Shown here: piece by piece, positions 3,465 to 19,186 of the stretch
Position numbering within the stretch: the first letter of the stretch is position 1
How the letters are laid out: each line of letters starts with the position of its first letter
Assembly: GCA_035526025.1 (NCBI GenBank)
Contig: DATLDE010000011.1
Span: 49,374-113,373, forward strand
Direction: 5' to 3'
Source of the DNA: Candidatus Limnocylindrales bacterium
GTDB taxonomy: Bacteria; Patescibacteriota; Microgenomatia; Levybacterales; UBA12049
Length of the DNA stretch: 64,000 bases
Translations under genes and position numbers: made by a program
Notes under the pieces: model-generated
What the model was told of the DNA's origin: nothing
Databases searched by the model: none
What the model saw: the letters and a program-made list of their open reading frames with translations, nothing else

Positions 3465-3537
3465 GGACGCTGAGGGATTCGAACCCCCGACATCTTCAGT
3501 GTAAATGAAGCGCTCTACCAGCTGAGCTAAGCGTCCT
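3465..3537 (-). tRNA. tRNA-Val (anticodon TAC)
   Basis: Reverse complement is GGACGCTTAGCTCAGCTGGTAGAGCGCTTCATTTACACTGAAGATGTCGGGGGTTCGAATCCCTCAGCGTCCA. It has the canonical cloverleaf, GTTCGAATC T-loop, and anticodon loop TTTACAC. Confidence 0.8.
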
Positions 3538-3646
3538 AAGTAGAATAGATTATAGAATAAATTAAATTTTCAAGCAATGGTTATTTGAGATGACAAAAAG
3601 ACAGTTCATGAAATAATTCCAAAATAATTTCTGATACAATAATAAT

Positions 3647-4102
3647 ATGGATACCCTGCCAGACATGGAAGCATACAGATTCGTTGCGATTCTAAATAAA
3701 AAAATTGAGATTGGTAAGCTGATGAATGCTCTTGGGCATATGGCTGCAGGATTGGGTGGAGGATCAAAAAAAGCCGGTCTTATGTATTTTCTGGAATATT
3801 TTGATAAGGATGGTGGCCTGCACCCAAATATATCAAACTATCCATTTATTGTTCTAGCAGCTGATAACTCCAGTCAGATAAGAACCGCCAGAATTGGAGC
3901 AATAGAAAGAGGAATTTCTTTTACTGACTTTACAAGTTCCATGACTGTCGGATCAACCCAGGAACAGCTAGATAATACCGCAAATACAATTGAGACGGAT
4001 CTTGAATATTATGGTTTATGTATGTTCGGCGCAACACAGGAGCTTCAGGACATCACAAAGAAATTTCACTTTTCAAATAACACTTTGCCCAATCATGAAT
4101 GA
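3647..4102 (+). CDS. hypothetical protein (DUF2000-like)
   Basis: 151-aa ORF. Glycine-rich AAGLGGGSKKAG segment. Overlaps the next gene by 8 nt. Confidence 0.4.
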   Translation: MDTLPDMEAYRFVAILNKKIEIGKLMNALGHMAAGLGGGSKKAGLMYFLEYFDKDGGLHPNISNYPFIVLAADNSSQIRTARIGAIERGISFTDFTSSMTVGSTQEQLDNTANTIETDLEYYGLCMFGATQELQDITKKFHFSNNTLPNHE

Positions 4103-4673
4103 AACAAGATCTGAAACAGAAAGAGTATACGCCGTTCCTAGCATGGCATTACTTGAAAGCTTTACTCTCCCTCCCGATAGCTGGTCACCAACCCAGGAAC
4201 CATCTTCAGTTATTGAAGCAGGTGAACAATACAAATTTAAAACAGCATTAGTCATCGGTCGATTTCAGCCTTTGCACTGGGGGCATATTTACTTAATACA
4301 CAAAGCACTGGAGATGTCAAAATCTGTAGTAATAGGAATCGGAAGCTCAAACACAGCTGATGAAAAAAACCCATTTCCAGCCTTACAACGTCACCTTTTA
4401 TTAGAAAGAACTCTCAATAGGGAGGGGATTAGATCAAGAATAAATAATATTGTCCATCTCACAGATCATGATGATGATAATCAATGGTTACAAAGAACAG
4501 TTTACAGGACAGGTGAAGTTGAGGCGGTAGTAGGCAATAATCAATGGGTAAATGGGATTTTTGAAAACGCTGGGTTTCAGACAGTAGAAATCCCCATGTA
4601 TAAAAGACAGATTTATAAAGGTGAGGAGATCAGGAGAAATTTGCGCAGTGCAGGTCTCCTAAGACCCCATTAA
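4095..4673 (+). CDS. cytidylyltransferase-fold nucleotidyltransferase, NadM-like NMN adenylyltransferase
   Basis: ALVIGRFQPLHWGHIYLIHKAL is the (H/T)xGH nucleotidyltransferase motif in the archaeal NMNAT context GRFQP.HxGH. Start chosen at the internal ATG at 4095 (MNETR...). Track ORF is 3990..4673. Confidence 0.55.
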   Translation: MNETRSETERVYAVPSMALLESFTLPPDSWSPTQEPSSVIEAGEQYKFKTALVIGRFQPLHWGHIYLIHKALEMSKSVVIGIGSSNTADEKNPFPALQRHLLLERTLNREGIRSRINNIVHLTDHDDDNQWLQRTVYRTGEVEAVVGNNQWVNGIFENAGFQTVEIPMYKRQIYKGEEIRRNLRSAGLLRPH

Positions 4674-4710
4674 CTAATATCATTTATCAAAAACATAGAA
4701 GTCTTTTTTT

Positions 4711-6183
4711 TTAATTGAAATTCCCAACATCTTTTGAAATCCAGTATTTTATTTTATTTTCCGGCAAAAGCATAATCCTACTCGGACTTAGTCCCTCAAC
4801 AAATTCCTCCGTGTGGCTTACAAAAAGCATTGCCCCTTTATAAGTTTTTAACGCTTCAAGTATTGTTCTTTGCGATACCATATCAAGATACGTTGTGGGT
4901 TCATCAAGTATAAGCAAATTATAATTTTGAAGCATCAGCATCGCAATCGATAGTCTGGTCTTCTCGCCCCCTGAAAGTGTACCGATTTTTTGATAAAGTT
5001 GAGGTCTTGGGAAATTAAATGAACCGAAAATTGGCAATATTTGCTGAAGAGCCAGACTGCATTGCTCCTCAATCATTTCCATTATCGTCTGTTCAAAATT
5101 AAATGTTTCAAATTCTTGTGAGTAATACCCGATATGAAGCTCAGGATCTTTTATAATATCACCAGTTGTAGGCTGCAGTCTTCCCATGAGGATTTTGATA
5201 AATGTACTTTTTCCAGCACCGTTTGGACCATACAGTGCGATGCGCTCTCCACGTTTTATAGCAAGTGATACATCATTTAAGATTTTTTTTCCTTCAAAAC
5301 TTATTGAGATATCTTTCACCCGTAGAGGGATTTCACTGGTTCGCTTTGGCTCAGGGAGCGTAAATTTAATACCACGAACTTCTTTGGGCAATTCTGGCAA
5401 TTTGTCTTTGATACGATCAATACGTGTCTGTACGCTTGCACGCGCTCTCGCACCCTTTTCTGTAAATCCACTTGCCATTTTCAAAAGACTTTTTTTCATA
5501 CGATTTATTTCTTTTTGATCATTCTCAAATTTTTTCGCAAGCATCGCGTCATTGTTTCCTTTTAACTTAACGTATTTTGTATAATTTCCTTTATATTCCT
5601 CAATTTTCTTTGTTGTAGGGTTAATTGCCAGGATTTTATCGATATGATTATCAAGAAGACTGATATCATGAGAAATTATTAGTAGGGTATTTGGATAATC
5701 ACTCAAAAATTCCATTATCCATCTCTTGCCCTCTGTATCCAGAAAATTGGTTGGTTCATCAAGCAAGAGAATCTCTGGCTCCTGAATTATTGCACGAAGC
5801 AAGGCGAGCTTTGTGCGCTGTCCACCACTTAGAATTTTGGGCATTGTGTCCAGATCTGCATTCACTTCAAGAGACTCAAGCATTACCATAAGCTCCCACA
5901 TTTCTTTTTTCATTTCAGGGTCTATATAGCTTTTGATATCTACTGCAGCAACGAGTAGGGGATCATGTTTTACTTCTTGAGGTACATATCCGATACTTCC
6001 TTGAATTTGTAGGGATCCAGTCGAAGCCTGATCTTCACCTCTTAAGAGCTTAAATAAAGTTGATTTACCAGCCCCATTTGGACCGACCAACCCAATCAGC
6101 TCACCCTTTATGACAGAAAAGCTGGAGTCAGTATAGACAACTTGACGGGAATAACCATAAGAAATATTTTTGGCGATAATCAT
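4711..6183 (-). CDS. ABC-F family ATPase (tandem ABC domains, no membrane domain)
   Basis: Two Walker A sites (GPNGAGKST twice), two ABC signatures (LSGGQRTKLALL, LSGGEKTRLSIA), two Walker B sites (LLLDEPTN, LILDEPTT). 490 aa. Confidence 0.75.
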   Translation of the reverse strand: MIIAKNISYGYSRQVVYTDSSFSVIKGELIGLVGPNGAGKSTLFKLLRGEDQASTGSLQIQGSIGYVPQEVKHDPLLVAAVDIKSYIDPEMKKEMWELMVMLESLEVNADLDTMPKILSGGQRTKLALLRAIIQEPEILLLDEPTNFLDTEGKRWIMEFLSDYPNTLLIISHDISLLDNHIDKILAINPTTKKIEEYKGNYTKYVKLKGNNDAMLAKKFENDQKEINRMKKSLLKMASGFTEKGARARASVQTRIDRIKDKLPELPKEVRGIKFTLPEPKRTSEIPLRVKDISISFEGKKILNDVSLAIKRGERIALYGPNGAGKSTFIKILMGRLQPTTGDIIKDPELHIGYYSQEFETFNFEQTIMEMIEEQCSLALQQILPIFGSFNFPRPQLYQKIGTLSGGEKTRLSIAMLMLQNYNLLILDEPTTYLDMVSQRTILEALKTYKGAMLFVSHTEEFVEGLSPSRIMLLPENKIKYWISKDVGNFN

Positions 6184-6286
6184 AATTATTTTTGAGGAAA
6201 AGAATTAAACTAATTAGTTCTTGTGAGGGTCGCAAAGCGCAAAACACAATCTCTTCTTACATTTCTATTTATTATACCAGATCTAG

Positions 6287-6369
6287 TGCGGACGAAAGGA
6301 GTTGAACCTTCACACCCTTTCGGGCACTACCACCTCAAGGTAGCGTGTATACCATTTCACCACGTCCGC
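6287..6369 (-). tRNA. tRNA-Leu (anticodon GAG)
   Basis: Reverse complement is GCGGACGTGGTGAAATGGTATACACGCTACCTTGAGGTGGTAGTGCCCGAAAGGGTGTGAAGGTTCAACTCCTTTCGTCCGCA. The long variable arm is typical of Leu. No encoded CCA. Confidence 0.8.
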
Positions 6370-6559
6370 GTATTTTTGTGCCCCTGAGGGACTTTCTTTT
6401 GAACACTTCTTGCCTTGGATTCAGAAAATAATAAATGTTTATCAAAACCTTGAAGATGCTCAAGACGGTCAGCTTATACCTCAGGACATTACAACCTCTA
6501 AAGCATATTATACGAAAAAATTGAATTAAAAGAAAGTTAAATGATTAATAGAGAATTGG

Positions 6560-6832
6560 TTACTTTCCGTAGACTTCATCATGTGTTCCAATATCGACAA
6601 AGTATGCTGTACTATCATCAAGTAAATGATAAATCATTCTTATATTCATTGTAATTGAGATACTCCACATGTTTGTTAAGTTCCCAGTTAATTTATGGAG
6701 TCGCAATGAAGGATGCCTCGGATTAGTTTTTAATAGCTGTAATTGTTTAATGATTTTCTTTTCTAGTTTTTGATCTGTTTTTTTAATTCTTGATAATTCT
6801 TTTACGACAAGCGGAGAGAGTTTAAAATTCAT
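6560..6832 (-). CDS. type II toxin, RelE/ParE superfamily
   Basis: 90 aa. HPSLRLHKLTGNLTNMWSISIT...YFVDIGTHDEVY fits the RelE/YafQ-like core. Start overlaps the upstream antitoxin stop (ATGA). Confidence 0.65.
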   Translation of the reverse strand: MNFKLSPLVVKELSRIKKTDQKLEKKIIKQLQLLKTNPRHPSLRLHKLTGNLTNMWSISITMNIRMIYHLLDDSTAYFVDIGTHDEVYGK

Positions 6833-7086
6833 TACAATTCTTCAAAAAACTTAGTGACATCGTTAACTGAAACTGCATTATTAATCTGCTCCATTGCTTC
6901 CTTGGCTCTTTTTTCAGTCCTTTCAGACATTTTAAATGTAGGATATTCTTCAGTCTCTACCTCTTTGATTATGAGATGTTTTACAAATTGAGTTACAGGA
7001 ATACCTAAGCGCGAAGCTTTAGACTGCAATAAATCATTCAGTTGGTCCGAAAGGCTAATTTTGAGTTGTATTTGTTGTGTATTCAT
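6832..7086 (-). CDS. cognate antitoxin (RHH/ParD-DinJ-like)
   Basis: 84-aa acidic protein immediately upstream of, and overlapping, the toxin. PVTQFVKHLII is ribbon-helix-helix-like. Confidence 0.5.
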   Translation of the reverse strand: MNTQQIQLKISLSDQLNDLLQSKASRLGIPVTQFVKHLIIKEVETEEYPTFKMSERTEKRAKEAMEQINNAVSVNDVTKFFEEL

Positions 7087-7227
7087 AAAATTACTTAATT
7101 AATACCTAAATTATACCTATAAACTGTAGCTATGTCAAGATATAAAAAAATAAAGTGTTCAACTCTCCTTTAGGTGGTCATAAAAAATAGGCTAAAAATA
7201 CAAAAACTATTAAGTTATAAAATCGCC

Positions 7228-7255
7228 ATTTAGCCCGATATATCAATCTATTCGT
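7228..7255. repeat. 27-bp direct repeat, copy 1 (ATTTAGCCCGATATATCAATCTATTCGT)
   Basis: Matches 8581..8607 in 26 of 27 positions. The two copies bracket the Fic gene. Confidence 0.7.
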
Positions 7256-7391
7256 ATGTTTGAGACCGACCATGTCTCCTCTGGTGCACAAGAGAACTCT
7301 TATTTTGAACTCTTGCTGACATATTGTAACAAGTTGATGGAGGCTTATCAAGATAAAGCTGAAGACAAAATTGATAAAAATGAATAATTCC

Positions 7392-8426
7392 TTATTTCTC
7401 ACTCAAAACATAATAAGTGGCTCTTCCTTGTCCTTTTTTCTGAATAAGTCCTGCATCGATAAGTTTTTGAAAATCTAAAACTCTCGTGGGCTTGGCTCTT
7501 GACACTAGCTTTGCATATTCTCGATGGGTAATTGAACCATTTTCTTTTATAAAATTGAGTATTTTAATATGATAATCTTCTAATCTCGTGACTGATTTAA
7601 TAAAGGTTTCTGGCAGTAATTTTTGAACCCGGAGAAGCTCATCAATAATTCCTTCTGTAAAATACTCAAGCCATCTGGTGAAATCCATTTTCTCAGCTAA
7701 ATCATAATAATTTCCAAATTCTCCAACTGTTTGAAAGTATTTTGTAACATTTTTGTTATAATAATTTTCAAAACTAAAGAGACTGAATGTATTTAAACCC
7801 ATTTTTGCTAACAACACTTTTGTCATGAGTCGAGTTGTTCTTCCATTGCCATCCATAAATGGATGTATAATCACCATTTGTTTATGAAAAATACCAGCTA
7901 AAATAAGTGGATCAATACCTATGTTGTTAACATTGACATACCTTGTAAGCTCTTGAAGCATAGGTATTACATCTTGTACATCAGGAGGTAAATAAACCAT
8001 TTTGCCGGTTCGTGGATCATTAACAACTACCGGCTTTTGTCTAAGACCAATTTCGAACTTAGGAAGTAATCCTTCCATGACTTGTTTTTGAATTTTTAAG
8101 ATGAGGTCAAGTGAAAATTCCACTTTTCCCTCAGAAAGTTGTTGATTTAATTCTTGAAGCGCTCGGTTATAATTAAGTACTTCTTTTTCGCTGTCTCTAA
8201 TATGAGAAGGTGTGGTCTTAAGAATTTTTTTAACTTCGGTAAGAGGTAGTGGATTGCCCTCAATACTTGTGGAAGAGTAAGCTGATACTTCGCGGGCCGT
8301 CTTTTCAAATTCAAGAAGTATAATATTTGGGAAATGTCTGTTATTTAGCTCCGCCACAAGAGAAGTGATTTGCTTAATATTGGCGAGTAAACGTTCTGTA
8401 ATAGTGTACCTAGGATTAAATGACAT
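7392..8426 (-). CDS. Fic/DOC family protein (AMPylator-type) with C-terminal winged HTH
   Basis: HPFMDGNGRTTRLMTKVLL matches the Fic motif HPFx(D/E)GNGR. An N-terminal TSIEGN inhibitory-helix motif (S/T)xxxE(G/N) is present. 344 aa. Confidence 0.8.
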   Translation of the reverse strand: MSFNPRYTITERLLANIKQITSLVAELNNRHFPNIILLEFEKTAREVSAYSSTSIEGNPLPLTEVKKILKTTPSHIRDSEKEVLNYNRALQELNQQLSEGKVEFSLDLILKIQKQVMEGLLPKFEIGLRQKPVVVNDPRTGKMVYLPPDVQDVIPMLQELTRYVNVNNIGIDPLILAGIFHKQMVIIHPFMDGNGRTTRLMTKVLLAKMGLNTFSLFSFENYYNKNVTKYFQTVGEFGNYYDLAEKMDFTRWLEYFTEGIIDELLRVQKLLPETFIKSVTRLEDYHIKILNFIKENGSITHREYAKLVSRAKPTRVLDFQKLIDAGLIQKKGQGRATYYVLSEK

Positions 8427-8580
8427 TAGACGTATTATAGACGATTACTAGACGATTGTCAAGTATGTCTCACAATATTTGATTTAAATTAAAGAATACG
8501 AAGAGAAGAGTTGAACTTTTTTGAAGCTAAATTTATAGATTTGCTTACCACAAATAACTGTATGTTCTTATCAAGACAAA

Positions 8581-8607
8581 ATTAGCCCGATATATCAAGC
8601 TATTCGT
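8581..8607. repeat. 27-bp direct repeat, copy 2 (ATTAGCCCGATATATCAAGCTATTCGT)
   Basis: Second copy lies about 30 bp from the 3' end of tRNA-Leu(CAG). Confidence 0.7.
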
Positions 8608-8636
8608 CGCTTTGACAATACTACTATCTTCTCATG

Positions 8637-8719
8637 TGCCCAGGAGAGGAGTTGAACCTCCACGCCCTTGCGAGCACTGGCACCTGAAGCCAGCGTGTAT
8701 ACCATTTCACCACCTGGGC
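8637..8719 (-). tRNA. tRNA-Leu (anticodon CAG)
   Basis: Reverse complement is GCCCAGGTGGTGAAATGGTATACACGCTGGCTTCAGGTGCCAGTGCTCGCAAGGGCGTGGAGGTTCAACTCCTCTCCTGGGCA. Long variable arm. Confidence 0.8.
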
Positions 8720-8809
8720 ATGACAGGCTTATTCTAACGCCAAGCATAATTTTAACAGAAGATGATACAGTTGACAACGGAGGTGAATTTTGCAAATATA
8801 TAGTAGCCC

Positions 8810-9376
8810 ATGAGAAAGTTATTACTTGCCTCAATCCTCCTGGCAATCACTCCGCTTGCCATGATCCTTGGCCTCGTCGTCTTCTTAAATAGCTATAGCC
8901 AGACAGCCCAACCAATCACATACCGCGAAACCGTCGCGTACGCAGCGCTCCCATCTGATCAAAACATTATTTCAGGGAATATAATTGAAAGTCAGAACGG
9001 CAAAGCTGAAAAAATCAGACAATTTTTAGCTCGATACAATTCACCACTTGAGCCTTATTCAGTTGACATTGTAAATGCAGCAGAAGAGTATGGCCTTGAT
9101 CATAGGTTAATTCCGGCAATTGCCATGCAGGAGTCTACACTTTGTAAAAAAATACCCGTAAATTCTTTTAATTGTTGGGGATTTGGGATTTATGGAACCA
9201 AGGTAACAAGATTTGCTGACTTTAAAGAGGGTATTTATACCGTAACAAGGGCACTTGCTACAAGATATAAGAAAAGAGGACTTGTAACAGCCGATCAAAT
9301 AATGACTATGTACACCCCAAGTAGTAATGGTAGTTGGGCAAGAGGTGTAAATACAGTCCTCAATCAGCTTCAGTAA
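8810..9376 (+). CDS. secreted/membrane-anchored GH73-like glucosaminidase-domain protein (FlgJ-like), paralog 1
   Basis: N-terminal TM/signal. FLARYNSPLEPYSVDIVNAAEEYGLDHRLIPAIAMQES...NCWGFGIYG resembles the FlgJ glucosaminidase core (FLARL..P...A.QES.WG...NLFGIK). Confidence 0.45.
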   Translation: MRKLLLASILLAITPLAMILGLVVFLNSYSQTAQPITYRETVAYAALPSDQNIISGNIIESQNGKAEKIRQFLARYNSPLEPYSVDIVNAAEEYGLDHRLIPAIAMQESTLCKKIPVNSFNCWGFGIYGTKVTRFADFKEGIYTVTRALATRYKKRGLVTADQIMTMYTPSSNGSWARGVNTVLNQLQ

Positions 9377-9551
9377 ATCGATCACATCTTATAGTTTGGT
9401 ACTTGACAAACCTATAGTTATATGATATTATCCCTTCCAGATCCTAAGGCAAGTGCCCAAAACACTTGCGTTAGGATTTTTTTTAATAAAAATTAAATAG
9501 CATCTCTATTCTCACCAATACCAATCTTACAAGATTTTTCCAATACTTATT

Positions 9552-10100
9552 ATGAAAAAAATTTTATTTTTAATACTTTGCGCTTTATTTTTTCAGAATG
9601 CAGACCCTACTTTTGCCAAAACACCTATTGCACGATCATCTGCAAAATTAGTTGTATCTAATAGCTTACCTAAGAAGGATAGGCGTGCTGAAATACTTGA
9701 ACAATTCCTTATTGAGCGAGGGTCTCCACTTGCGCCGCATGCTCAGACATTTATAGACGAGGCTGATAAAAATAAGATTGACTGGAAGCTAGTCGTTGCC
9801 ATTTCAGGCAACGAATCTCAATTTGGTCTTCTGATCCCACCATATTCCAATAATGGATGGGGTTATGGAGTTTATGGGAACAATGTCAGAAATTTTGCGT
9901 CATGGGATGAGGGAATTGTAGTTGTATCAAAAGCATTGAGAAAAGACTATTTGGATATGTGGGGCGCAACAAATATTTATGAAATAGGAGCTATTTACGC
10001 AGAAGATCCGTTATGGGCAAATAAAGTAAGCTACTATTTAACACTCATTGAAGAATACGATTCGGAACCTTCGAACACTTCTATTTCAATTTCTCTATAA
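9552..10100 (+). CDS. secreted GH73-like glucosaminidase-domain protein, paralog 2
   Basis: Signal peptide. Same motif layout as 8810..9376 (QFLIERGSPLAPHAQTFIDEADKNKIDWKLVVAISGNES...NGWGYGVYG). Confidence 0.45.
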   Translation: MKKILFLILCALFFQNADPTFAKTPIARSSAKLVVSNSLPKKDRRAEILEQFLIERGSPLAPHAQTFIDEADKNKIDWKLVVAISGNESQFGLLIPPYSNNGWGYGVYGNNVRNFASWDEGIVVVSKALRKDYLDMWGATNIYEIGAIYAEDPLWANKVSYYLTLIEEYDSEPSNTSISISL

Positions 10101-10105
10101 ATATT

Positions 10106-11827
10106 CTATAATAATATTGTCTTTTCGTGGTTCCAGTCAAAATGCGTAGCATTTTGATAGAGGAGCAACCGACGAAAAGCCGCAATCCGAATGCAATGAG
10201 GATAAAGGCTGCAGTCGAGTTGTGACGAGCGGACGTGGTGAAATGGTAGACACGCAAGTTTTAGGAACTTGTGCTCAAAAGGCTTGGAGGTTCGAGTCCT
10301 CTCGTCCGCACACAACAGTACAGTCTCATCCTTAAACCCTCGAATAGCCTGATATAACGGGCTAATCTTATGATTCAATGTACCATTATAGCTCCAAGCT
10401 AATCCTTCAGGGAACATTGAACCAAGCAGTACCTTAGCCTGACTTTGATTTGATCTTTTGTAAGCTTCCCCAAGATCTGCTAAGAGTGTCTTTATAAAAG
10501 ACGTAACTTTATCAATATTGTAATTCTCCATCGTTGCGTCATCTTTACTGATCAAAACTTGAGTAATTTGGTTTTCAATAGTTGCGTTTTGCTCCTTAAA
10601 GATTTCATCAGAATATACACCTGAAAGGTTTTTCTCAACTAACTGTTTTCTAAGAGCTTTAAGCCTCACTATCTCATCATCAGCATTATTTTTAATCTTA
10701 AGTAGCCTTGAATATCTTGCATGGTATGTCTTGTAAAGACAGGTTATGAAAAGATTAAGGCATTCTGTTTTGGGAGTAACTTCTTTGAGTAAATTTATCA
10801 GGACATTATCAAGATCATTTGTTTTAATTGATTTACTATTGCAGGGTTTACCACAGCGGTAATATTGATATTTAATGTGTCGCCCCTTACTCCATGCACC
10901 AGTTAAGCCAAATCCGCATTTTGAACACTTTATAATCCGTCTTAGCGGAAAATCAGGGTTAATGTGATTCCTTTTGGCTAAAGCCACTTTATTTGGGTTC
11001 CGACCGTCCAGAATGGCCTGTACCTTATAGAATTGCTCCTCTGTGATCATTGGTACATATTGTCCTTTTACTTCCTCATTGTATGTGTTTGAGGACAGAA
11101 TTCCCATATAAAACTTATTTCTAAAAAGTTCATTTACTCTCTGGCGAAGCAGGGGATACTCTTTTTGTTTACGCATATGCCTCAAGCCCCAGTCATTCAT
11201 AATTTCAGCCATCTCAGAAAGGCTCTTAGTGCCTGTCGCCATAAGATCCCATGCTTTTCTCATACTATCCCAAGCTTTTGGATCTTTTACCGCATAACCT
11301 GTCTGAACCATATAACCAAGAGGCACAGAGCCTGTAACGATCATTCCTGACAAAAACCGTGCTCTAAGCCCATTTCGTGACCTTTCTGAGCGGATATCAT
11401 TATCAAGTTGTGCAAAGCCAGCAAGAATTGTCTCAACCAGCTTTTCTGTTGGACTTTCTCCAGTTGGCTCGGAAATTGAAACAACATTTGCTCCGTATTC
11501 AGCAAGTTTTTTCCTTATACTTAAATAATCAGCAGTTATTCTTGAAATCCTATCTATTCTATAGACAAATACAGCTTGAACCCTATTCTTGTTTTTCCGG
11601 CAATACTCAAGTAGATTAATCAGAACAGGTCTTCCGGTTATGTTTTTAGCAGAACGCCCCTCTTCTCTAAATATTTCAATCACGTCATAGCCTCTTTTCT
11701 CCGCTTCTTTTCTGCACATACCCTCTTGGGTATCCAGGGAGAAGTTATCAACCTGCTCCTCAGTTGATACCCGAATGTAGATTACTGCTCTTTTCCCATC
11801 AGCATAAATTGCTTTTTGCGGTCTCAT
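10106..11827 (-). CDS. large serine recombinase (resolvase/invertase N-domain + recombinase domain + zinc ribbon)
   Basis: N-terminus AVIYIRVSTEEQ carries the catalytic Ser. Zinc ribbon: CSKCGFGLTGAWSKGRHIKYQYYRCGKPC. 573 aa. The last roughly 70 codons run antisense through tRNA-Leu(TAG) and beyond. The true C-terminus is uncertain. Confidence 0.8.
   Translation of the reverse strand: MRPQKAIYADGKRAVIYIRVSTEEQVDNFSLDTQEGMCRKEAEKRGYDVIEIFREEGRSAKNITGRPVLINLLEYCRKNKNRVQAVFVYRIDRISRITADYLSIRKKLAEYGANVVSISEPTGESPTEKLVETILAGFAQLDNDIRSERSRNGLRARFLSGMIVTGSVPLGYMVQTGYAVKDPKAWDSMRKAWDLMATGTKSLSEMAEIMNDWGLRHMRKQKEYPLLRQRVNELFRNKFYMGILSSNTYNEEVKGQYVPMITEEQFYKVQAILDGRNPNKVALAKRNHINPDFPLRRIIKCSKCGFGLTGAWSKGRHIKYQYYRCGKPCNSKSIKTNDLDNVLINLLKEVTPKTECLNLFITCLYKTYHARYSRLLKIKNNADDEIVRLKALRKQLVEKNLSGVYSDEIFKEQNATIENQITQVLISKDDATMENYNIDKVTSFIKTLLADLGEAYKRSNQSQAKVLLGSMFPEGLAWSYNGTLNHKISPLYQAIRGFKDETVLLCADERTRTSKPFEHKFLKLACLPFHHVRSSQLDCSLYPHCIRIAAFRRLLLYQNATHFDWNHEKTILL
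10229..10310 (+). tRNA. tRNA-Leu (anticodon TAG)
   Basis: GCGGACGTGGTGAAATGGTAGACACGCAAGTTTTAGGAACTTGTGCTCAAAAGGCTTGGAGGTTCGAGTCCTCTCGTCCGCA. Long variable arm. Confidence 0.8.
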
Positions 11828-12213
11828 AGGCCTCCTTTCTCATGAAGCAACTCATTTAAAGTTTTTCCTTCAAATATTTCTCGCTCAAAATCATCAAGCC
11901 AACTTTCAGCTAGGAATTGGACTTTTGTTACCGTATCTTTTAACTCATTTTCGCTAAATTGAGTAGCCATAGGACCTAACGCCTTTTTTGCCTCTTGAAT
12001 AATTTTTCCGTCATATTCTTGCTCCGGGAATAAATCATCCAAGGATTGTTTAAGTGATTGAGAAATTGGCTTGGGCGCAGAGACAGGTAGGGATTCATCT
12101 AAAACTTGTGCTAAAGGAGTAATTATCTTTTCTTGAGAAAGTGGCAACTGTTGAACTGCTGCATTCATATTTGGTCTATCAACATTGTCAATTTTCAAAG
12201 CTAAACTAGTCAT
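11824..12213 (-). CDS. hypothetical acidic protein, overlaps the recombinase start (ATGA)
   Basis: 129-aa ORF translationally coupled to the recombinase. Confidence 0.45.
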   Translation of the reverse strand: MTSLALKIDNVDRPNMNAAVQQLPLSQEKIITPLAQVLDESLPVSAPKPISQSLKQSLDDLFPEQEYDGKIIQEAKKALGPMATQFSENELKDTVTKVQFLAESWLDDFEREIFEGKTLNELLHEKGGL

Positions 12214-12454
12214 ATATGATTAGTATATAACTATATATGCCTAGTTGTCAATCGCCAAATTATTTGCTCTTATTAAGAGCTTTTAAGTGCTTTTACAATG
12301 CTTCTTTTAGGGGTCTTACCCCTCTAATGCAAGGGTAAAATGCACTCCTCATTCTTCGTCGCCCTTGCATTATTCACCCTGCTTATGACTTTCAGTCAGG
12401 TAGTCGGGCATGGGCATGCCCGACAAAAACAATTATGAGAAAGGAGGTGAGAAT

Positions 12455-12790
12455 ATGGAATTATTAACAGTAGAGCTTAAAGAGAAACTTCCAGCTCTTT
12501 ATGCTCAAGAGAAAGAGAGAGATCCATTGGTGTATATTAAATTCTTTGATCCAACCGGATCATGGACATGGTATGCAACTGAAGGTGAGGAGGCAGATGA
12601 TGACTTTCTTTTCTTTGGGTATGTTGTAGGACACGATTCAGAGCTTGGGTATTTTACTCTTAGCCAGCTGAGGAGTGCTAAAAAAGGCGTGAGCGGTATT
12701 TTGAGCTTACCAATAGAACGTGATCTATATTTCAAGCCATGCAGGCTTTCTGAGGTAAAAGGATTAAATCAGTCCATGTGTAAGTTTTAG
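12455..12790 (+). CDS. DUF2958 family protein (plasmid/ICE-associated)
   Basis: KFFDPTGSWTWYATEGEE...FGYVVGHDSELGYFTLSQL...ERDLYF matches my memory of the DUF2958 signature. Start taken at the ATG preceded by GAAAGGAGGTGAG. Track ORF is 12410..12790. Confidence 0.6.
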   Translation: MELLTVELKEKLPALYAQEKERDPLVYIKFFDPTGSWTWYATEGEEADDDFLFFGYVVGHDSELGYFTLSQLRSAKKGVSGILSLPIERDLYFKPCRLSEVKGLNQSMCKF

Positions 12791-12837
12791 TGATAGTGGG
12801 GTGCTGACAAAGTGCCCCACTATTCTAATATGCTAGA

Positions 12838-13629
12838 TTATTTTATACTTTCCCAAATACTTCCAGTTACGCCATTTGCTATTACATCCTCAGCTGTTGC
12901 GAACATGATTGATAACTCATCAGTGTTATCTTCCTCAAGTATTCTTTTAGTATAGCGTTTTGCATAAATCATCCTTTCCTTTGTTCCTCCGACAAAAAAT
13001 ATCATGGGAAAAGGTGAATTTATGTGGTTTTCCCACTCATTACTGTAGTAAAAATCTTTGTATGCGCGTATTCGTTTTCGTATTCTGTAATATGGAAGTT
13101 TCTCATCAAAAATAGTCAGTAGGAAGTATTGTATTTTTTTGCCCTTTTCTTTTTTAGAAAAACATATATCAACCGACAGATCAGAGTTTTTTAAAAATTT
13201 AAAGTCACTATCTTCATTACAGATATCGCTTTCGGTTGAATATGTGCGAGTTACGGTATCATTGTTTTTCCTCTCAAGCTCGCAGCAAATTCTAGAGATA
13301 AGTAAACAGTGTTGAATAAAGCTATCAGAGCGGGTCTTATCCCAGTAGAGTTTATGAATAAAATTTGTGTCATATTTTCCTTTTGCTTTTATATATCTTA
13401 TCCCGTTATTATCCAATGTATAGATTGCCGATATTCTGTTTTTCCCAATGATCGTATTGTCATATATTCTTTTGATGTATTTCTTCTCTGTTAGGTCTTT
13501 TAACCAGTTATTTATTCTTGCCTCGTCTTTGTGATTGAGGAGGGATTGGATATGTTGTCTGTTGAGGAATCTGTATCGTGGAATTAGTGTTGTTATTTCT
13601 TGTTGTTTGTTAGTTATGTTAGGTATCAT
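12838..13629 (-). CDS. replication-relaxation (Replic_Relax) family-like protein
   Basis: 263 aa. N-terminal wHTH-like region (LIPRYRFLNRQHIQSLL...WLKDLTEKKYIKRIY). Family call is tentative. Confidence 0.4.
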   Translation of the reverse strand: MIPNITNKQQEITTLIPRYRFLNRQHIQSLLNHKDEARINNWLKDLTEKKYIKRIYDNTIIGKNRISAIYTLDNNGIRYIKAKGKYDTNFIHKLYWDKTRSDSFIQHCLLISRICCELERKNNDTVTRTYSTESDICNEDSDFKFLKNSDLSVDICFSKKEKGKKIQYFLLTIFDEKLPYYRIRKRIRAYKDFYYSNEWENHINSPFPMIFFVGGTKERMIYAKRYTKRILEEDNTDELSIMFATAEDVIANGVTGSIWESIK

Positions 13630-13788
13630 TATGTTTGTTTTTTTTGTATATATTTATTTTTTACTTTTATTATTTATGCCATGCCCAACCGTATTAATAT
13701 ACTCCGTTATTTTTAAGGGTAGGTGTCACAATTCTATTGCATATTAGCTTCAAATTAGCTTAAAAATTGTCGTTAACATCAACGACAA

Positions 13789-16548
13789 TTAAATATATTG
13801 TTGTTTTATAGTTTTTATTCCTTTTTTAACCCCGTTTGTTTTTACTGTGAGCTTACTTGCTTCTAGCAATTGCTTATCTTTTTTTTCAGAGTCTGTTTTC
13901 TTTGTGTTTCCTTTTGTAGGTACTGCTTTGAACAATTTTTCCAGTTGCTTTTCAACATCTGCTTTTGGAGTCGCATAGTGTGCCCTTGAATTCTCAATAA
14001 TCTTTTTTGCTGTTTTGTCACTCCCTTGTTCTGTTACGGGTAACGTAACGCCTGAAAATGCATCTTCTGAATGCTCATTGGTCACTTTCATATAGAAGTG
14101 GTGTGGCGCAAGATTAACTATTGCCCCTTTTTCTACTTCCGGCTCAAGGAAGGGTAGAAGGATTTTTTCATCATCAGGTCCGTTTTTAAGAGCAATTAAG
14201 TTTCCACTATTACTTAAAACTATCTTTGATAATTTTGGATCTTCAATTTGGGCAATATTTTGATGAGACGGCGTGAAGTAAACATGATACTTTCTTGCTT
14301 CTGAAAAAAGATCAGTAAAATGCGCACTTGCAAAGTTTTGAAATTCATCGATATAAACATAGAAATGAGATCTATCTTTTTCCGGTATTGCGGCTCTGGC
14401 ATATACAGCCAGTTGGATAAGGGAAAGTATTAGCGTGCCAAAGAACGCACTCCGCTCTTCTCCAAGCTTCCCTTTTGAGAGATTTACCAGAAGAATTTTA
14501 CCCTTATCCATTATTGCTGAAATGTTAATTGTTGTATTTTTCTGAAGTAAGATATTTCTTGACAATTTATCTGTCATAAATTCACCCAGTTTGTTGGTCA
14601 AGGGGGAGGCAGCATCTGCCTGCTGAATTTTGCCATATGAGCTATACTCTTTTTCCCAGAATTGCTTTAATACAGGATCAGTAAGAGTTTGAGTAACAGT
14701 TCTTCTATAGTCCTTATCAGTTAACAGTTTTTGAATTGCCATTAAAGAAATGTATGGAGTCTCAGGAGTCGGAGTATGTACCTGGAGTGCAGTAAGCGTG
14801 GCATTTCTGAGGATATGCTCCATTTTCTGACCCCAATGCTTCTCTGGTGTTATTTTCATAAATACAGCCATTAATGACCTGGCAATGAAACCATGCTCCT
14901 CATCAATATCTGAGAATTTTATATCTGGGGAGAGTATATTAAGTCCCAATGGAAAATCTTTATCAGAAGGATTAATTAGGACTACATCTTTCAATCTGTG
15001 TTTGGGGATAAGAGTCAGTAAATGCTCAATCAAATCCCCATGAGGATCAAGAATTGCAATCCCTTTCCCATTTTGAATGTCTTGTAGTGCCATACCTTCA
15101 ATAATGGTTGTTTTACCCATACCTGTTTTACCGACAATGTACGTGTGCTCCTTTTTATTCTTATCAGTTAACCCTACTTCAGTTTTTTCTCCACCATAAT
15201 TATTTGTACCAACTACAACGTCAAACTGCGTTGCTGTTTTTTTAAATGAATGAGGAGCAGGTAGTTCCTTACTTTTGCTTTTAACCATATCCTCAGTTTT
15301 GGTTGTTTGAGTGTAAGGCAAGTGATAGATGCTTGAGAGTTCTGTAACTGATAAGAAAATTGTATGGGAAAAAGAAAGGAGCCTGTTACCAAGTTGGTAG
15401 ACAGAAAAGAGTAAAATATATTGTTTTATTCTTTTAGGAATGAATGATGAAAAAACTGTGTGACGCGGAATAATTGCCTGATACTGGGCATTATCAAATG
15501 TTGAAAGTGTTGCCTGGAACCCCCTTATCCTCTCCCTAACAATATTCGAGTTATTTCCAATAACAAGAAGTCGCATGCTTGTTTCAAACACAGGAAGTTG
15601 TAACTTATCCTGTACCTGCTGAAACAATACTTGTTGAGTAGCTGTTGGGGTAAAGACTTTCTTGGGCTTTGCCTCATAATTATTACGTGGAGCTGGTTGG
15701 TTACTGCTACTTCTCAGTGCAATATCAGCAAAAAAACCAATAATTCCAACTAATAACCCAAGAGTCCAATAAATTAATTTACTAATTACATTAATTGGAA
15801 AAACAATGACTGAAAGCAATCTATTCTTTTGAATAATTGGTGAAATATCCTTATTGTGCCAGAGGTGATTTAGTAGCTTATCTGCCTCCTGTGTTTTTGC
15901 CCTATTACTTGCCTTGTCCATAGGAGAAAGGATTAATTGCAGGGAAATAAGCTCCTGTGGTGCAAGCTTTGTCATATTGCCTGTTAGGTATGCAATTGGA
16001 TCATGCTCTCTTAGTTTTGTTTGATCTGTTAGAGGGATAGCGAAGTGGTTTACTAAACGGAATGTTATTAACCGTATAGCTTTACTTGCTGTGAGAAAAT
16101 TTCTTATGCCTTCAAATGATCGCGGAAGATAATCAGCTACCTCCTCTATCTCAACACTTGGTAAGTATGAAAGAAGTGTTTTTCGTATAACTGGGGCATC
16201 AGATTTAGCTGTGTGAATAAGATAACGGATTCCTTCTTCTTTGGTTGCAACAAGCTCAACACTGATTGTTGTTTTGTCATGTATAAATCTTTGCCAGAAT
16301 GTTTTTCCTTTGATTAGCGAATGGAGTTGGGTAAATAACTGCTCTGTAGCATAGGAACTCTGGAGTGTTTGCTTGATTGGTTTAATTGAAAGAACAACAT
16401 GTGGGGTATTGAGTTTCCTTTTTAGCAGTAAATACCTGGAGAGGAGATAAACTATGAGCAAAGTAAATGCTACGCATGAGAGTAATATTAAGTACGCTGG
16501 AAGAACTGCCAGAAATGATATATATTGTGTTGGCATATGCAATATCAA
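13789..16548 (-). CDS. conjugative-transfer-type P-loop ATPase (TraG/TraD/VirD4 coupling-protein-like, or VirB4-like), membrane anchored
   Basis: N-terminal TM helices. Walker A YIVGKTGMGKTTIIEG near residue 480, followed by IAILDPHGDL. Walker B YVYIDEFQNF. Lys-rich C-terminal tail. Confidence 0.6.
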   Translation of the reverse strand: MILHMPTQYISFLAVLPAYLILLSCVAFTLLIVYLLSRYLLLKRKLNTPHVVLSIKPIKQTLQSSYATEQLFTQLHSLIKGKTFWQRFIHDKTTISVELVATKEEGIRYLIHTAKSDAPVIRKTLLSYLPSVEIEEVADYLPRSFEGIRNFLTASKAIRLITFRLVNHFAIPLTDQTKLREHDPIAYLTGNMTKLAPQELISLQLILSPMDKASNRAKTQEADKLLNHLWHNKDISPIIQKNRLLSVIVFPINVISKLIYWTLGLLVGIIGFFADIALRSSSNQPAPRNNYEAKPKKVFTPTATQQVLFQQVQDKLQLPVFETSMRLLVIGNNSNIVRERIRGFQATLSTFDNAQYQAIIPRHTVFSSFIPKRIKQYILLFSVYQLGNRLLSFSHTIFLSVTELSSIYHLPYTQTTKTEDMVKSKSKELPAPHSFKKTATQFDVVVGTNNYGGEKTEVGLTDKNKKEHTYIVGKTGMGKTTIIEGMALQDIQNGKGIAILDPHGDLIEHLLTLIPKHRLKDVVLINPSDKDFPLGLNILSPDIKFSDIDEEHGFIARSLMAVFMKITPEKHWGQKMEHILRNATLTALQVHTPTPETPYISLMAIQKLLTDKDYRRTVTQTLTDPVLKQFWEKEYSSYGKIQQADAASPLTNKLGEFMTDKLSRNILLQKNTTINISAIMDKGKILLVNLSKGKLGEERSAFFGTLILSLIQLAVYARAAIPEKDRSHFYVYIDEFQNFASAHFTDLFSEARKYHVYFTPSHQNIAQIEDPKLSKIVLSNSGNLIALKNGPDDEKILLPFLEPEVEKGAIVNLAPHHFYMKVTNEHSEDAFSGVTLPVTEQGSDKTAKKIIENSRAHYATPKADVEKQLEKLFKAVPTKGNTKKTDSEKKDKQLLEASKLTVKTNGVKKGIKTIKQQYI

Positions 16549-16719
16549 TAATTTTGAGGCAGTAGTCTAAAGCGGACAGAGGTTTTAGATGAAGCTGATG
16601 ATATCAGAAAAGGTTATTTAAGTACAGATGTCATACAATACCCAATAACCTGCTAAGAGACTTTTTTAATACTTGAAGTTTTAGAGCATGATGGGAAAAA
16701 AGACCAAAGCATCTTGGTT

Positions 16720-17655
16720 TTAAGCAGCAATCTTGTCATAGTAAAATAACTTTCCTCTTACGTCGTCAAAGCAGCGTTTCGAAGTTAGAGCTGATGGTAT
16801 ACCATTTGCATGCCCAGCTTGTTGATAAGCTTGCCATTCTTCAGGATCAAATCTGTCAACATATTCACTGGCATCTCTAGCAATAAAATAAACTGGTATC
16901 CCCGCAGCTAAAGCTGTAGTTCCTTTTAAAAATTCACGCCTATCCTTTAATGGTTCTTCTTTCTTGTTTATATAAGACACTGCAGCAATTTCAGCTGCTG
17001 CAGCTGCTGCTACGTATGGAGCTGTAGCTAAAGTTAATTTTTTCATACCGTATAATGCGGTTACAGCATTTCTAGTGTTTTCACCTCGTCTCCCACCTTG
17101 CACTACGTGATATAGCTCATGAAAAACTACTCCATTTAGTGCAGAATTCCAATGCGGAAGAATGTCTGGGGCTATTTCTAAAACTATTGGATCTTCAGGA
17201 TACATAGGGTGACGTACTGTGCCTGAAAATCCGCTATGTCCATCTCCGTTACCCCTATCTTCTTTACGCATTTGATTTATTTCTAGTCCGTATTTTTTAA
17301 CGTATGCAGATACTCTGTCTACCTCAGAGACTCCTCCGTCAAGATAGGATAAGTAAGTTAGGGCACGAGACATAGTATCCAAATTGACTGCGGGTTGGCT
17401 TGGACTTCCATCTGATCCTCCACCTATTACTATAACAGTGTCAAACTTTCCAGCTTTCATGTATTTTTTTATTTCCTCTGCCTTGGGCTTTAGAAGTTCA
17501 GCAGTTTGTGGAGATATATCATAATCAGGACCAAATGTTCGGTTTTCATAGGCTTTACTTCCCAGGACCCCCCCCAATACAGTAGCAACTCCCGCTTTTG
17601 CACCTAAACGTAAGAATCTTCTTCTGCCTATGCTTACAGGATCTCTTTCCGCCAT
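16720..17655 (-). CDS. Tat-signal secreted protein with HExxH zinc-peptidase-like motif
   Basis: N-terminal RRRFLRLGAKAGVATVLGG. FHELYHV is an HExxH motif. A second internal Tat-like motif, DRREFLKGTTALAAGIP, is also present. Confidence 0.45.
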   Translation of the reverse strand: MAERDPVSIGRRRFLRLGAKAGVATVLGGVLGSKAYENRTFGPDYDISPQTAELLKPKAEEIKKYMKAGKFDTVIVIGGGSDGSPSQPAVNLDTMSRALTYLSYLDGGVSEVDRVSAYVKKYGLEINQMRKEDRGNGDGHSGFSGTVRHPMYPEDPIVLEIAPDILPHWNSALNGVVFHELYHVVQGGRRGENTRNAVTALYGMKKLTLATAPYVAAAAAAEIAAVSYINKKEEPLKDRREFLKGTTALAAGIPVYFIARDASEYVDRFDPEEWQAYQQAGHANGIPSALTSKRCFDDVRGKLFYYDKIAA

Positions 17656-17870
17656 AATGCGGATTATATACCGTTCTAGGATAAATTTCTACACTATTTT
17701 GAGCAGGTTAATTCCCCACTAGAGAAAAAATATATCTAAGTCCATTTCTACAAAACTTAAAAATTTTTACATTAAACACTGTCATATTCAAAAATACATG
17801 AAAAAGTAAATAATTTTATTTTCCTATAGTACTTGTTTTTGCCATTTCAGGCTGCTAAAATAGGCAAATC

Positions 17871-18767: not shown

Positions 18768-19186
18768 TTGGTGAAGGATTTAGGAGATTACCCAGACCCG
18801 AAGGAGATGGCCATCCAACTAGAGAAGTACGGGGAAATGTTACTAGAAGTATCGAGCGTTTAAGGCCAGATTCCATAGCAGTTGAGTTAGTGCCACCTCA
18901 TGAGCTTATGCCATTTATTCTTCCTCCAAGTGCCGAAGGGGTAGTGCAAGCAATAGCGGCATTCGCAATCAGTGGAGAAACCCGTACTGCAGTTTGCGAA
19001 TTTGAAGATCGCAGAAACGATACGGTAACAAGAATTACTCTTGAAAATCCAACTGGTGATCCTTTCAACATGAGAATTACCCTTTCCAGTCCAGACAGAG
19101 AAGAAGGAGAAAAAGTACCACCCGGTATTGGCATTAAGGTTGTTGATAAAGAAGGAGCAACTCAAAAAGAGTTAGATAAAAAGTAA
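18764..19186 (+). CDS. hypothetical protein
   Basis: 140-aa ORF overlapping the ligase stop. No recognisable motif. Confidence 0.35.
   Translation: MIGEGFRRLPRPEGDGHPTREVRGNVTRSIERLRPDSIAVELVPPHELMPFILPPSAEGVVQAIAAFAISGETRTAVCEFEDRRNDTVTRITLENPTGDPFNMRITLSSPDREEGEKVPPGIGIKVVDKEGATQKELDKK

Follow-up and report, generated by a model that had tools for sequence, protein, structure and literature searches.

Are closely spaced tRNA genes, with recombinase, toxin and other accessory-type genes lying among them, the product of repeated insertion, or an old arrangement into which mobile elements have come? This question is raised by a locus of a Candidatus Limnocylindrales bacterium (GTDB lineage Bacteria; Patescibacteriota; Microgenomatia; Levybacterales; UBA12049). 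The DNA analyzed, referred to below as the window, is a stretch of 64,000 nt (NCBI GenBank assembly GCA_035526025.1, contig DATLDE010000011.1, positions 49,374 to 113,373 of the forward strand). An earlier note on it had described three tRNA-Leu genes within 4 kb, separated by a RelE-type toxin-antitoxin (TA) pair, a Fic gene and two GH73-like paralogs, and had read the region as a repeatedly targeted insertion locus whose contents are all accessory. The explanation that we favor, and consider highly probable, is that the tRNA-Leu trio and the GH73-like pair are old core genome, that the tRNA 3′ ends serve as bacterial attachment sites (attB) for one family of elements encoding a large serine recombinase (LSR), and that a 17,927-bp element and two tandem recombinase-less units have inserted here.

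Core genome and inserted DNA

ARAGORN finds six tRNA genes in the window, three of which are tRNA-Leu: tRNA-Leu(GAG) at 6286–6369 and tRNA-Leu(CAG) at 8636–8719, both on the minus strand, and tRNA-Leu(TAG) at 10229–10311 on the plus strand. The Rfam tRNA model matches the trio at 54–57 bits, compared with a gathering score of 29, and an Rfam scan of 6000–10500 returned no match besides these three.

A GH73-like protein query against one genome per species retrieved 80 loci, mostly from Candidatus Levybacteria along with other Microgenomates, onto which the tRNAs and the window proteins were mapped (individual loci carry L numbers below, and individual recombinases P numbers). The order conserved in these loci is tRNA-Phe, tRNA-Val(tac), tRNA-Leu(gag), tRNA-Leu(cag), GH73a, GH73b, tRNA-Leu(tag), trigger factor and DUF5660, with tRNA-Val(gac) further downstream. 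The same trio of tRNA-Leu genes recurs in dozens of related genomes with order and orientation unchanged, so that its clustering is not due to chance, and the conserved order means that the tRNA cluster and the GH73 pair are ancestral core genome and not cargo.

The two core genes GH73a (8810–9376, plus strand) and GH73b (9552–10100, plus strand) encode secreted paralogs. It should be noted that the 80 loci were retrieved by the GH73-like query; in all 80, GH73a, GH73b or both lie beside tRNA-Leu(TAG), usually between tRNA-Leu(CAG) and tRNA-Leu(TAG) wherever the former is present. Protein identities range from 90% down to about 35% (Levybacteria, Woesebacteria, Daviesbacteria and WWE3), and no att relic flanks the pair. 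As far as sequence goes, GH73-like is a fair description of both: one paralog scores 23.6 bits with the Pfam model Glucosaminidase, under the cut-off of 30.2, the other has no match, and a four-sequence profile matches solved structures of LytB-type endo-beta-N-acetylglucosaminidases (E=2e-8).

Judged from the intergenic distances, the variable positions are the 3′ flanks of the tRNA-Leu genes. Between Leu(gag) and Leu(cag) the median gap in 32 species is 54 nt, with 5 over 600 nt, and the window has 2266 nt; between Leu(tag) and trigger factor the median in 47 species is 109 nt, with 19 over 600 nt, and the window has 17.9 kb; between Val(tac) and Leu(gag) it is 63 nt in 23 species, with 8 over 600 nt, and the window has 2749 nt. 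In L002, the closest relative (GH73a 90% identical), the Leu(gag)–Leu(cag) gap is 117 nt and the TA pair and Fic gene are absent. In another relative, L001, tRNA-Leu(gag) is occupied by an element whose LSR is 92% identical to that of the window; neither Leu(cag) nor Leu(tag) has an insert there, and homology to the window picks up at 28288, at trigger factor, which bounds the 17.9-kb insert. The insert is likewise absent between tRNA-Leu(TAG) and trigger factor in L003, L004 and L016. No att relic was found in the 3′ flank of tRNA-Leu(GAG) in the window, and this site is read as unoccupied.

The comparison of synteny that the earlier note had proposed thus brought out variation, not identity, among relatives in the GAG–CAG and TAG–trigger factor gaps. 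Its anticodons and positions for the three tRNAs hold, as do the genes that it placed between them; its third tRNA, described as bordering a recombinase-bearing element, is indeed the attachment site of that element, the recombinase reading frame running antisense through tRNA-Leu(TAG). Reuse of insertion sites was correctly recognized, but the tRNA cluster itself is ancestral and the hot spots are the tRNA 3′ ends; likewise, the RelE pair and the Fic gene are inserted, whereas the GH73-like paralogs belong to the conserved core of Levybacteria and Microgenomates. It would be wrong to call the GH73-like pair and the tRNA cluster an island; island calls should cover 6382–8635 and 10312–28238. 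The extension of the element to about 28.2 kb, the att relics in the GAG–CAG gap and the overlap of the recombinase and tRNA genes go beyond what had been noted.

Junctions and attachment sites

A 25-nt motif, TTAGCCCGATATATCAAGCTATTCG, has three copies in the window, compared with none expected by chance: just 3′ of tRNA-Leu(cag), just 3′ of tRNA-Leu(tag), and an orphan at 7230. It encodes ISP(I/L)YQAI, the near-invariant C-terminal motif of the LSR family, and the flanks of tRNA-Leu(CAG) and tRNA-Leu(TAG) form a 92-nt inverted repeat. There are five junctions, all of which contain GCAC (acceptor position 72, the discriminator and the next base). In tRNA sense, and with a slash at the junction, attL-TAG reads ...GGTTCGAGTCCTCTCGTCCGCAC/ACAACAGTACAG..., attR-TAG reads ...GGTTCAAAATAAATACTATCCTCCGCAC/ACCAGCGGAAAAATATAAATATG, in which the ATG is the start of trigger factor, and attL-CAG reads ...CTCCTGGGCAC/ATGAG.... 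The internal junction of the tandem array lies at 7284–7287 and its last junction at 6378–6381, with only 8 nt then remaining to tRNA-Leu(gag). This ancestral 8-nt spacer, the B′ arm of the CAG site, and core copy 3 occupy 6370–6381 (minus strand; GTGC at 6378–6381 is GCAC in tRNA sense); core copy 1 is the 3′ end of tRNA-Leu(CAG) itself (8636–8639), the attL of the array.

Removal of the inserts from the sequence gives sites of a familiar kind. The predicted empty attB, ...GGTTCGAGTCCTCTCGTCCGCAC/ACCAGCGGAAAAATATAAATATG, is a tRNA-Leu 3′ end plus ACCAGCGGAAAAATATAAAT, and the reconstructed sites resemble real empty ones, namely tRNA-Leu(cag), a short spacer and tRNA-Leu(gag), or tRNA-Leu(tag), about 20 nt and trigger factor; the spacers of the empty sites in L005, L009 and L007 measure 19–33 nt. 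The predicted attP joins 28190–28238 to 10312–10370 (...GCGGTTCAAAATAAATACTATCCTCCGCAC/ACAACAGTACAGTCTCATCC...). That the crossover lies at the palindromic 25-nt motif was considered and rejected, since empty sites and attR lack the motif. We infer that the crossover dinucleotide lies within GCAC, a placement that the sequence does not narrow to two particular bases.

The arms follow a regular geometry. In recombinase sense, the B (tRNA) arms consist of GTGC, 12 nt and T(C/T)GAAC, which is the T-loop, and the P (element) arms of GTGC, 17 nt and TTGAAC; the 17-nt spacing applies to every one of the window's three P arms, to L026 and L084, and to five LSR contigs without a tRNA (L082, L083, L132, L137 and L157). 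For the A118/LI integrase, Rutherford et al. (2013, PMC3783163) showed that the zinc-ribbon-domain motif occurs in the arms of both attP and attB, its distance from the center being 5 bp shorter in attB. The arms described here obey this rule, with the T-loop as the motif.

Apart from this, an octamer, TATCAAGC (codons Y-Q-A), forms a direct repeat around the crossover, its copies some 105 nt from each other, one within ISPLYQAI and the other within LMEAYQA of the tail described below (window 8592–8599 and 28150–28170; P arms of L084, L097, L023 and L026). The two copies could be accessory binding sites.

The large serine recombinase and its family

The recombinase gene occupies 10106–11827 on the minus strand and encodes 573 residues, the family-typical 511 of which correspond to 10294–11827; its 3′ end is the P′ arm of the predicted attP. 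The N-terminal resolvase domain (PF00239) scores 110.8 bits (cut-off 23.3), PF07508 (Recombinase) 34.8 bits and PF13408 (Zn_ribbon_recom) 32.0 bits, both over their cut-offs, and IRVSTEEQ, the R-x-S-T motif with the catalytic serine, is invariant across the family. In the AlphaFold model of the family member P0078, whose body is modeled well, long antiparallel helices span residues 355–402 and 408–432. The window LSR has the domains and attachment sites of a serine integrase, and catalysis of attP x attB recombination is predicted.

Homologs number more than 1000, mostly of 506–513 residues, and are less than 30% identical to any LSR in phage or plasmid collections and to any characterized one. 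In most, the C-terminus consists of ...S(C/G/S)A plus a peptide like DERT, GEGNRT or GDGTRTRDLLLGK, and such C-terminal peptides (CADERT, GAGEGNRT) are antisense translations of tRNA 3′ ends. The reading frame ends inside an antisense tRNA, in constant register, in about 70 of the 84 LSR loci available as DNA (80 from a metagenome scan plus L001, L008, L082 and L083). At least 10 tRNA types are targeted, among them Leu (gag, cag, tag, taa), Gly (gcc, ccc, tcc) and Glu (ttc, ctc), as well as His, Met, Ser, Lys, Phe, Val and Arg. About half of the family members terminate at the TGA within a TTCAAGT T-loop; the window T-loop is TTCGAGT, and the LSR frame reads through the tRNA, running on for 62 codons, because the codon at that place is CGA. 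An exact-match lookup of the window recombinase found only the same arrangement on a 3.7-kb contig. Synonymous sites are constrained toward the 3′ end of the gene, where the relative codon entropy at residues 481–520 is 0.42, compared with about 0.85 elsewhere; the constrained stretch, 30–55 nt from the crossover, falls outside a canonical 50-bp attP.

Serine integrases had long been believed to avoid tRNA genes. Mageeney et al. (2020, PMC7192596) state that no use of t(m)RNA genes by these enzymes had been reported before their own 14 computational cases among 297.

Comparison of sequences establishes the polymorphism of the insertions, their junctions and arm geometry, and the tRNA overlap across the family. 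On this basis, the following mechanism is proposed. Each tRNA-Leu 3′ end would serve as attB for one family of integrative elements, which carry an LSR, a small partner protein (p129), a DUF2958 protein, a Replic_Relax nickase-like protein and a VirD4-like coupling ATPase. Strands would be exchanged within GCAC, which runs from acceptor position 72 to the base after the discriminator, and exchange at this place would leave the tRNA host-encoded. The acceptor and T arm would form the B half-site, with the T-loop sequence GTTCRA acting as the zinc-ribbon-domain motif; the P half-site of the element has the same motif 5 bp further out, and the 3′ end of the LSR gene itself would be the P′ half-site. 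Integration would then replace a tail of about 32 residues with a few residues encoded antisense by the tRNA.

The 17.9-kb element at tRNA-Leu(TAG)

This element spans 10312–28238 (17,927 bp). The LSR gene stands at its attL edge, where the 3′ end of tRNA-Leu(TAG) provides the B arm and the core GCAC (10308–10311); at the other edge is attR, whose core (GCAC 28235–28238) and P arm occupy 28135–28238 on the minus strand. Trigger factor starts at 28259, 20 nt past attR. The backbone comprises genes for p129 (129 residues; 11824–12213, minus), DUF2958 (12410–12790, plus), the Replic_Relax nickase-like protein (12838–13629, minus; PHROG annotation ‘replication initiation by nicking’) and a VirD4/TraG-like coupling ATPase of 919 residues (13789–16548, minus), which matches TrwB_AAD_bind, DUF87 and TraG-D_C. 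Among the 84 LSR loci, p129 lies upstream of the LSR in 73, the coupling protein is present in 38 and Replic_Relax in 35, these counts being limited by flank length.

Variable cargo fills 16720–28124: a gene for a 311-residue protein, biotin/lipoate-ligase genes, a 1141-residue carboxylase, several unknowns, a second Fic gene, here fused to MerR (26187–27212, minus), and a RelB/RelE pair next to the P arm (27387–28124, plus). The two Fic proteins of the window are only 27% identical, hence not a recent duplicate. The carboxylase, in which biotin carboxylase domains are fused to an acetyl-CoA carboxylase carboxyltransferase-like domain, is flanked by two genes of the biotin/lipoate protein ligase family (17871–23726), unusual cargo for a mobile element in a reduced-genome bacterium of the candidate phyla radiation (CPR). 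An 81-residue open reading frame (ORF) at 28135–28380 (minus) is the tail-coding frame continued over the trigger factor start and is unlikely to be a separate gene.

Among the scanned ORFs of 10.3–28.2 kb there is no VirB4-type match, and the only transfer-type genes are those of the VirD4/TraG-like and Replic_Relax proteins; for this reason, the element looks mobilizable rather than like a self-transmissible integrative and conjugative element. Nor does the 919-residue ATPase match FtsK_SpoIIIE, the type of TraB translocase that marks actinomycete integrative and conjugative elements. A survey of Patescibacteria published in 2025 counted 5,713 VirD4-like genes, nearly all far from virB4, and very few recognized relaxases (PMC12102498). 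Elements of the LSR family described here could account for some of these orphan genes.

The recombinase-less units at tRNA-Leu(CAG)

Two mini-elements lie in tandem at tRNA-Leu(CAG), a Fic unit (7288–8639, 1352 bp) and a TA unit (6382–7287, 906 bp). Each consists of a P′ relic of 56–58 nt, a promoter matching the sigma-70 consensus at 12 of 12 positions, cargo and a P arm, and neither has recombinase or transfer genes. In the Fic unit, P′ relic 1 (8578–8635, plus strand; KISPIYQAIRRFDNTTIFSCA) is followed by a promoter (8462 to 8434) and the gene of a Fic/DOC-family protein with a C-terminal winged helix-turn-helix domain (7392–8426, minus), which scores 61.3 bits with PF02661 and has, visible in the alignment, the motif HPFMDGNGRTTR (HxFx(D/E)GNGRxxR type); core copy 2 (GTGC 7284–7287) and the P arm follow at 7284–7387 (plus). 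P′ relic 2 of the TA unit (7228–7283, plus) holds the last 19 recombinase codons, SPIYQSIRMFETDHVSSGA. From the TA promoter (7138 to 7110) the antitoxin gene (6832–7086, minus) is read ahead of that of a RelE/ParE/YafQ-type toxin (6560–6832, minus), the antitoxin stop overlapping the toxin start at 6832. The toxin matches ParE_toxin (33.6 bits, cut-off 23) and YafQ (32.5, cut-off 30); the antitoxin has only a weak CcdA-like match under the cut-off. In the P arm of this unit (6382–6529, plus), which encodes the tail CAPEGLSFEHFLPWIQKIINVYQ, TTGAAC and the core are 17 nt apart.

The I codon of ISPIYQ is the common endpoint of five P′ relics, the two of the window and those in L026 and L005 among them. 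At tRNA-Leu(gag) of L026 lies a homologous TA unit whose P′/P architecture is unchanged; L032 has this TA pair between tRNA-Leu(tag) and trigger factor, and L092 has it downstream of a tRNA occupied by an LSR. As regards mobilization in trans or accretion, the homologous TA unit was found at other tRNA-Leu sites (L026, L032) and no excision product was seen. By their structure, the mini-elements are non-autonomous, att-flanked units; they may have been moved in trans, in the manner of cis-mobilizable elements (CIMEs) or pseudo-SCC units.

Read antisense, P′ relic 1 forms a terminator-like hairpin directly after tRNA-Leu(CAG), the sole such hairpin within 6000–10600. Across the family its pairs hold in 78% of cells in tRNA sense, versus about 50% in recombinase sense and 18–45% in slid controls. 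True covariation was absent from the hairpin, most pairs being fixed by Pro and Gln codons. These data are suggestive of a conserved RNA hairpin at the P′ motif.

A 74-residue ORF at 7178–7402 (minus), antisense to the tail frame at the internal junction, is probably spurious.

An attachment site inside the recombinase gene

The P arms carry the LSR reading frame on across the crossover, encoding a conserved tail of about 30–32 residues. At attR-TAG the antisense strand encodes CAEDSIYFEPLFLQFIVHFSSLMEAYQAAEEPEK, at 7284–7387 the tail reads GAQENSYFELLLTYCNKLMEAYQDKAEDKIDKNE or QENSYFELLLTYCNKLMEAYQDKAEDKIDKNE, in frame with relic 2 (each of these ending at a stop codon), and the sequence given above for the TA unit is the one found at 6378–6529. 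Similar tails occur in L084, L097, L027, L023, L005, L026, L082 and L137, and at least 12 independent P arms have one; in every copy the frame across the junction is kept. A natural LSR with a tail also exists, the 536-residue P0078.

Within the 16–20 codons past the YFE motif, synonymous differences exceed nonsynonymous ones. The amino acids L, M, E, A and YQA are kept despite variation in third positions (GCT/GCA/GCC/GCG, TTG/TTA/CTT/CTA); pooled, the proportion of synonymous sites that differ (pS) is 0.67 and of nonsynonymous sites (pN) 0.35, a pN/pS of 0.52, and the closest pair (window and L084) has 6 synonymous and 4 nonsynonymous changes in 20 codons (pN/pS 0.16). This excess argues that the tail is translated in some state. 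A protein-collection query with the reconstructed C-terminus of the excised form retrieved nothing but recombinase fragments that lack the N-terminal part and have tRNA antisense sequence at their ends.

Since attP lies inside the LSR gene, integration would exchange the C-terminus of the enzyme, the tail of about 32 residues giving way to a few residues antisense to the tRNA. The simplest reading is that the excised element makes an LSR of about 538 residues and the integrated one a tail-less LSR. Such a swap may act on the direction, stability or expression of the recombinase system.

Alternative explanations

Two alternatives would deny the division into core and inserts drawn here. One holds that everything between the three tRNAs, the GH73-like paralogs included, is accessory cargo brought by repeated insertion. 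The absence of the TA pair and Fic gene from the closest relatives and the differing gaps at these sites among species agree with it; on the other hand, one or both GH73 genes stand beside tRNA-Leu(TAG) throughout the 80 loci over a wide range of identities, with no att relic at their flanks. Conserved synteny refutes the pair as inserted cargo, and we regard this alternative as very unlikely. The other attributes the repeated tRNA 3′ flanks to duplication or gene conversion among tRNA-Leu genes, which are indeed alike (GAG and CAG are 83% identical), with no mobile element involved. It is contradicted by repeats that reach beyond the tRNA and encode the recombinase C-terminus in frame, by empty sites in relatives that lack the repeats, and by the same junction geometry at Gly, Glu, Lys, His, Met and Ser tRNAs, and is in our opinion extremely improbable.

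Several observations do weigh against integration by the LSR as we describe it. B′ arms of different sites have little sequence in common; there is no direct sign of excision, and none of the fetched loci is a circular contig by terminal overlap; the 62-residue extension of the window LSR is atypical for the family, and any present activity is putative. Canonical LSRs do not recombine attP with attL or attR, which leaves the origin of the tandem array unexplained. As to the tail, its YFE is encoded by TATTTTGAA, which matches the P-arm DNA motif TATTTTGAAC, so that its conservation may be in part at the DNA level; tails are very short in L132, L157 and L102, the long form thus not being universal; and the tail of P0078 has AlphaFold confidence (pLDDT) below 50, which permits no inference on docking. 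Some of these points bear on two further alternatives. The Fic and TA units may be inert deletion remnants of two full elements, their common left boundary having been kept by host selection for a tRNA trailer and terminator hairpin. This is a serious possibility, which we rate a little below even: the units lack a recombinase, the retained 58 nt, read antisense, fold into the one terminator-like hairpin of the region, immediately behind tRNA-Leu(CAG), with pairing in tRNA sense far above that of the slid controls, and TA modules resist loss. Against it are the homologous TA unit, with the same P′/P architecture, at different tRNA-Leu genes in L026 and L032, the full-length att junctions at both ends of each unit, the still open tail ORFs of the units, and the five relics with a common endpoint. 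The tail, in turn, may be a mere by-product of constraint on attP as DNA, the LSR working alike without it and the C-terminal swap having no regulatory meaning. YFE(P/L) is exactly the arm motif, some LSRs terminate immediately behind it (L132, along with P0048 and P0140, which end in ...MFEPI), confidence in the modeled tail is low, and synonymous-site constraint is present on the P′ side too; the amino acids kept past the motif with varying third positions, the low pN/pS values and the frame left intact over the junction in every tail copy speak the other way. On balance we doubt the by-product explanation, while taking it as quite possible. A more far-reaching extension of the favored reading is offered only tentatively, and as a whole is rather unlikely: that two LSR isoforms, an excised one of about 538 residues with a conserved amphipathic tail and an integrated tail-less one, form a switch, perhaps with p129 and antisense tRNA transcription, which sets the direction or level of recombination; that cassettes of P′ hairpin, promoter, gene and P arm make up a trans-mobilized, integron-like array anchored at tRNAs; and that many orphan coupling-protein genes of Patescibacteria are parts of mobilizable elements.

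Further observations on the tRNA cluster

On the 3′ side of tRNA-Leu(GAG), the window has DUF2000, a cytidylyltransferase-like gene and an ABC-F ATPase gene (3537–6285); in 13 of 23 relatives, no more than 150 nt separate tRNA-Val(tac) from tRNA-Leu(gag). This segment, in which no att relic was detected, may be an older insertion. In relatives, the distance between tRNA-Leu(CAG) and tRNA-Leu(GAG) is often only 1–55 nt, and the two are probably transcribed together; here, tRNA-Leu(GAG) is parted from tRNA-Leu(CAG) by window positions 6370–8635 and may depend on read-through from the TA promoter.

The spacer of about 110 nt from GH73b to tRNA-Leu(TAG) (10120–10228) folds at −37.1 kcal/mol (z=−3.8; 0 of 200 shuffles as good) and contains a perfect 9-bp hairpin, TCAAAATGC-GTA-GCATTTTGA, without an Rfam match; on visual inspection, L002 has a similar sequence upstream of its tRNA-Leu(GAG). 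The spacer may combine a terminator with a tRNA leader, or may be an undescribed RNA. In L032 (11640–11770), a second tRNA-Leu(TAG)-like gene directly follows tRNA-Leu(TAG), its D-arm region split by a GC-rich insert of about 50 nt, and is itself followed by a degenerate recombinase 3′ relic and a TA unit.

Many contigs placed in Levybacteria or Microgenomates by this locus, L002 and L008–L010 among them, have titles that name other taxa (‘uncultured Gammaproteobacteria’, ‘Lysobacterales’, ‘Methylomirabilota’, ‘Bathyarchaeia’) and look like mislabeled or mis-binned records of metagenome-assembled genomes.

Significance and comparison with known systems

The elements described here form a widespread, sequence-defined family of integrative elements in CPR bacteria, in which mobile elements have barely been described, and offer a possible explanation for many CPR VirD4-like genes without a nearby secretion system. 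They also present a whole clade of serine integrases on tRNA genes with what appears to be a readable code, in which the T-loop would be the zinc-ribbon motif and exchange would take place at the discriminator. The variation in targets amounts to a natural retargeting experiment, which may interest those who engineer serine integrases, and the placement of attP inside a gene provides a specific hypothesis for the control of recombination direction. A literature search, from which TIGER/Islander and LSR-mining databases were left out, found no description of this LSR clade, of a serine integrase with attP in its own gene, or of CPR integrative elements.

A118/LI shares with the present family, besides the 5-bp rule, a domain set of resolvase, recombinase and zinc ribbon with coiled coil; the differences are that the motif here is a tRNA T-loop and that the constrained stretch beyond the canonical attP is an additional feature. 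The phiRSM-type small serine recombinases, which integrate at tRNA-Ser, are likewise serine-family enzymes acting at a tRNA 3′ end, but are resolvase-like S-core enzymes without the recombinase and zinc-ribbon domains. Classical tRNA islands and prophages resemble the present elements in their tRNA 3′-end target, reuse of sites and variable islands; they employ a different enzyme family, the tyrosine integrases, and here the 3′ part of the tRNA is not duplicated because exchange takes place at the discriminator.

The composite SCCmec and pseudo-SCC islands of staphylococcal cassette chromosomes, moved by the large serine recombinases CcrAB and CcrC, insert at one fixed place, where the conserved host gene rlmH (orfX) has its 3′ end, and form tandem arrays in which recombinase-less, att-bounded units stand beside complete ones. 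Here, in contrast, the target is a tRNA, attP lies inside the LSR gene, the host is a CPR bacterium and the LSR is less than 30% identical to characterized ones. Analogously, CIMEs and accretion at the fda site of ICESt3-type elements provide att-flanked units that have no recombination or transfer genes and are in tandem with, or derived from, integrative elements; those systems use tyrosine integrases and long identical cores, whereas here the enzyme is a serine recombinase, the core is at most 4 nt, and recombination of attP with attL is not expected of such an enzyme. An attP inside a gene is known from SSV1-type archaeal integrases and from the integration-dependent immunity of mycobacteriophages (BPs, Brujita). 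There, as would be the case here, integration alters the product of the attP-containing gene, but the enzymes are tyrosine recombinases, and in our family the gene is not split and only the last 30 or so LSR residues would be exchanged. Integrative elements that form tandem arrays at tRNA genes are of a kind already known; new, as far as could be established, is a large, CPR-wide LSR clade at tRNA 3′ ends, in which the coding sequence of the recombinase contains attP and which is accompanied by att-bounded units of a single gene.

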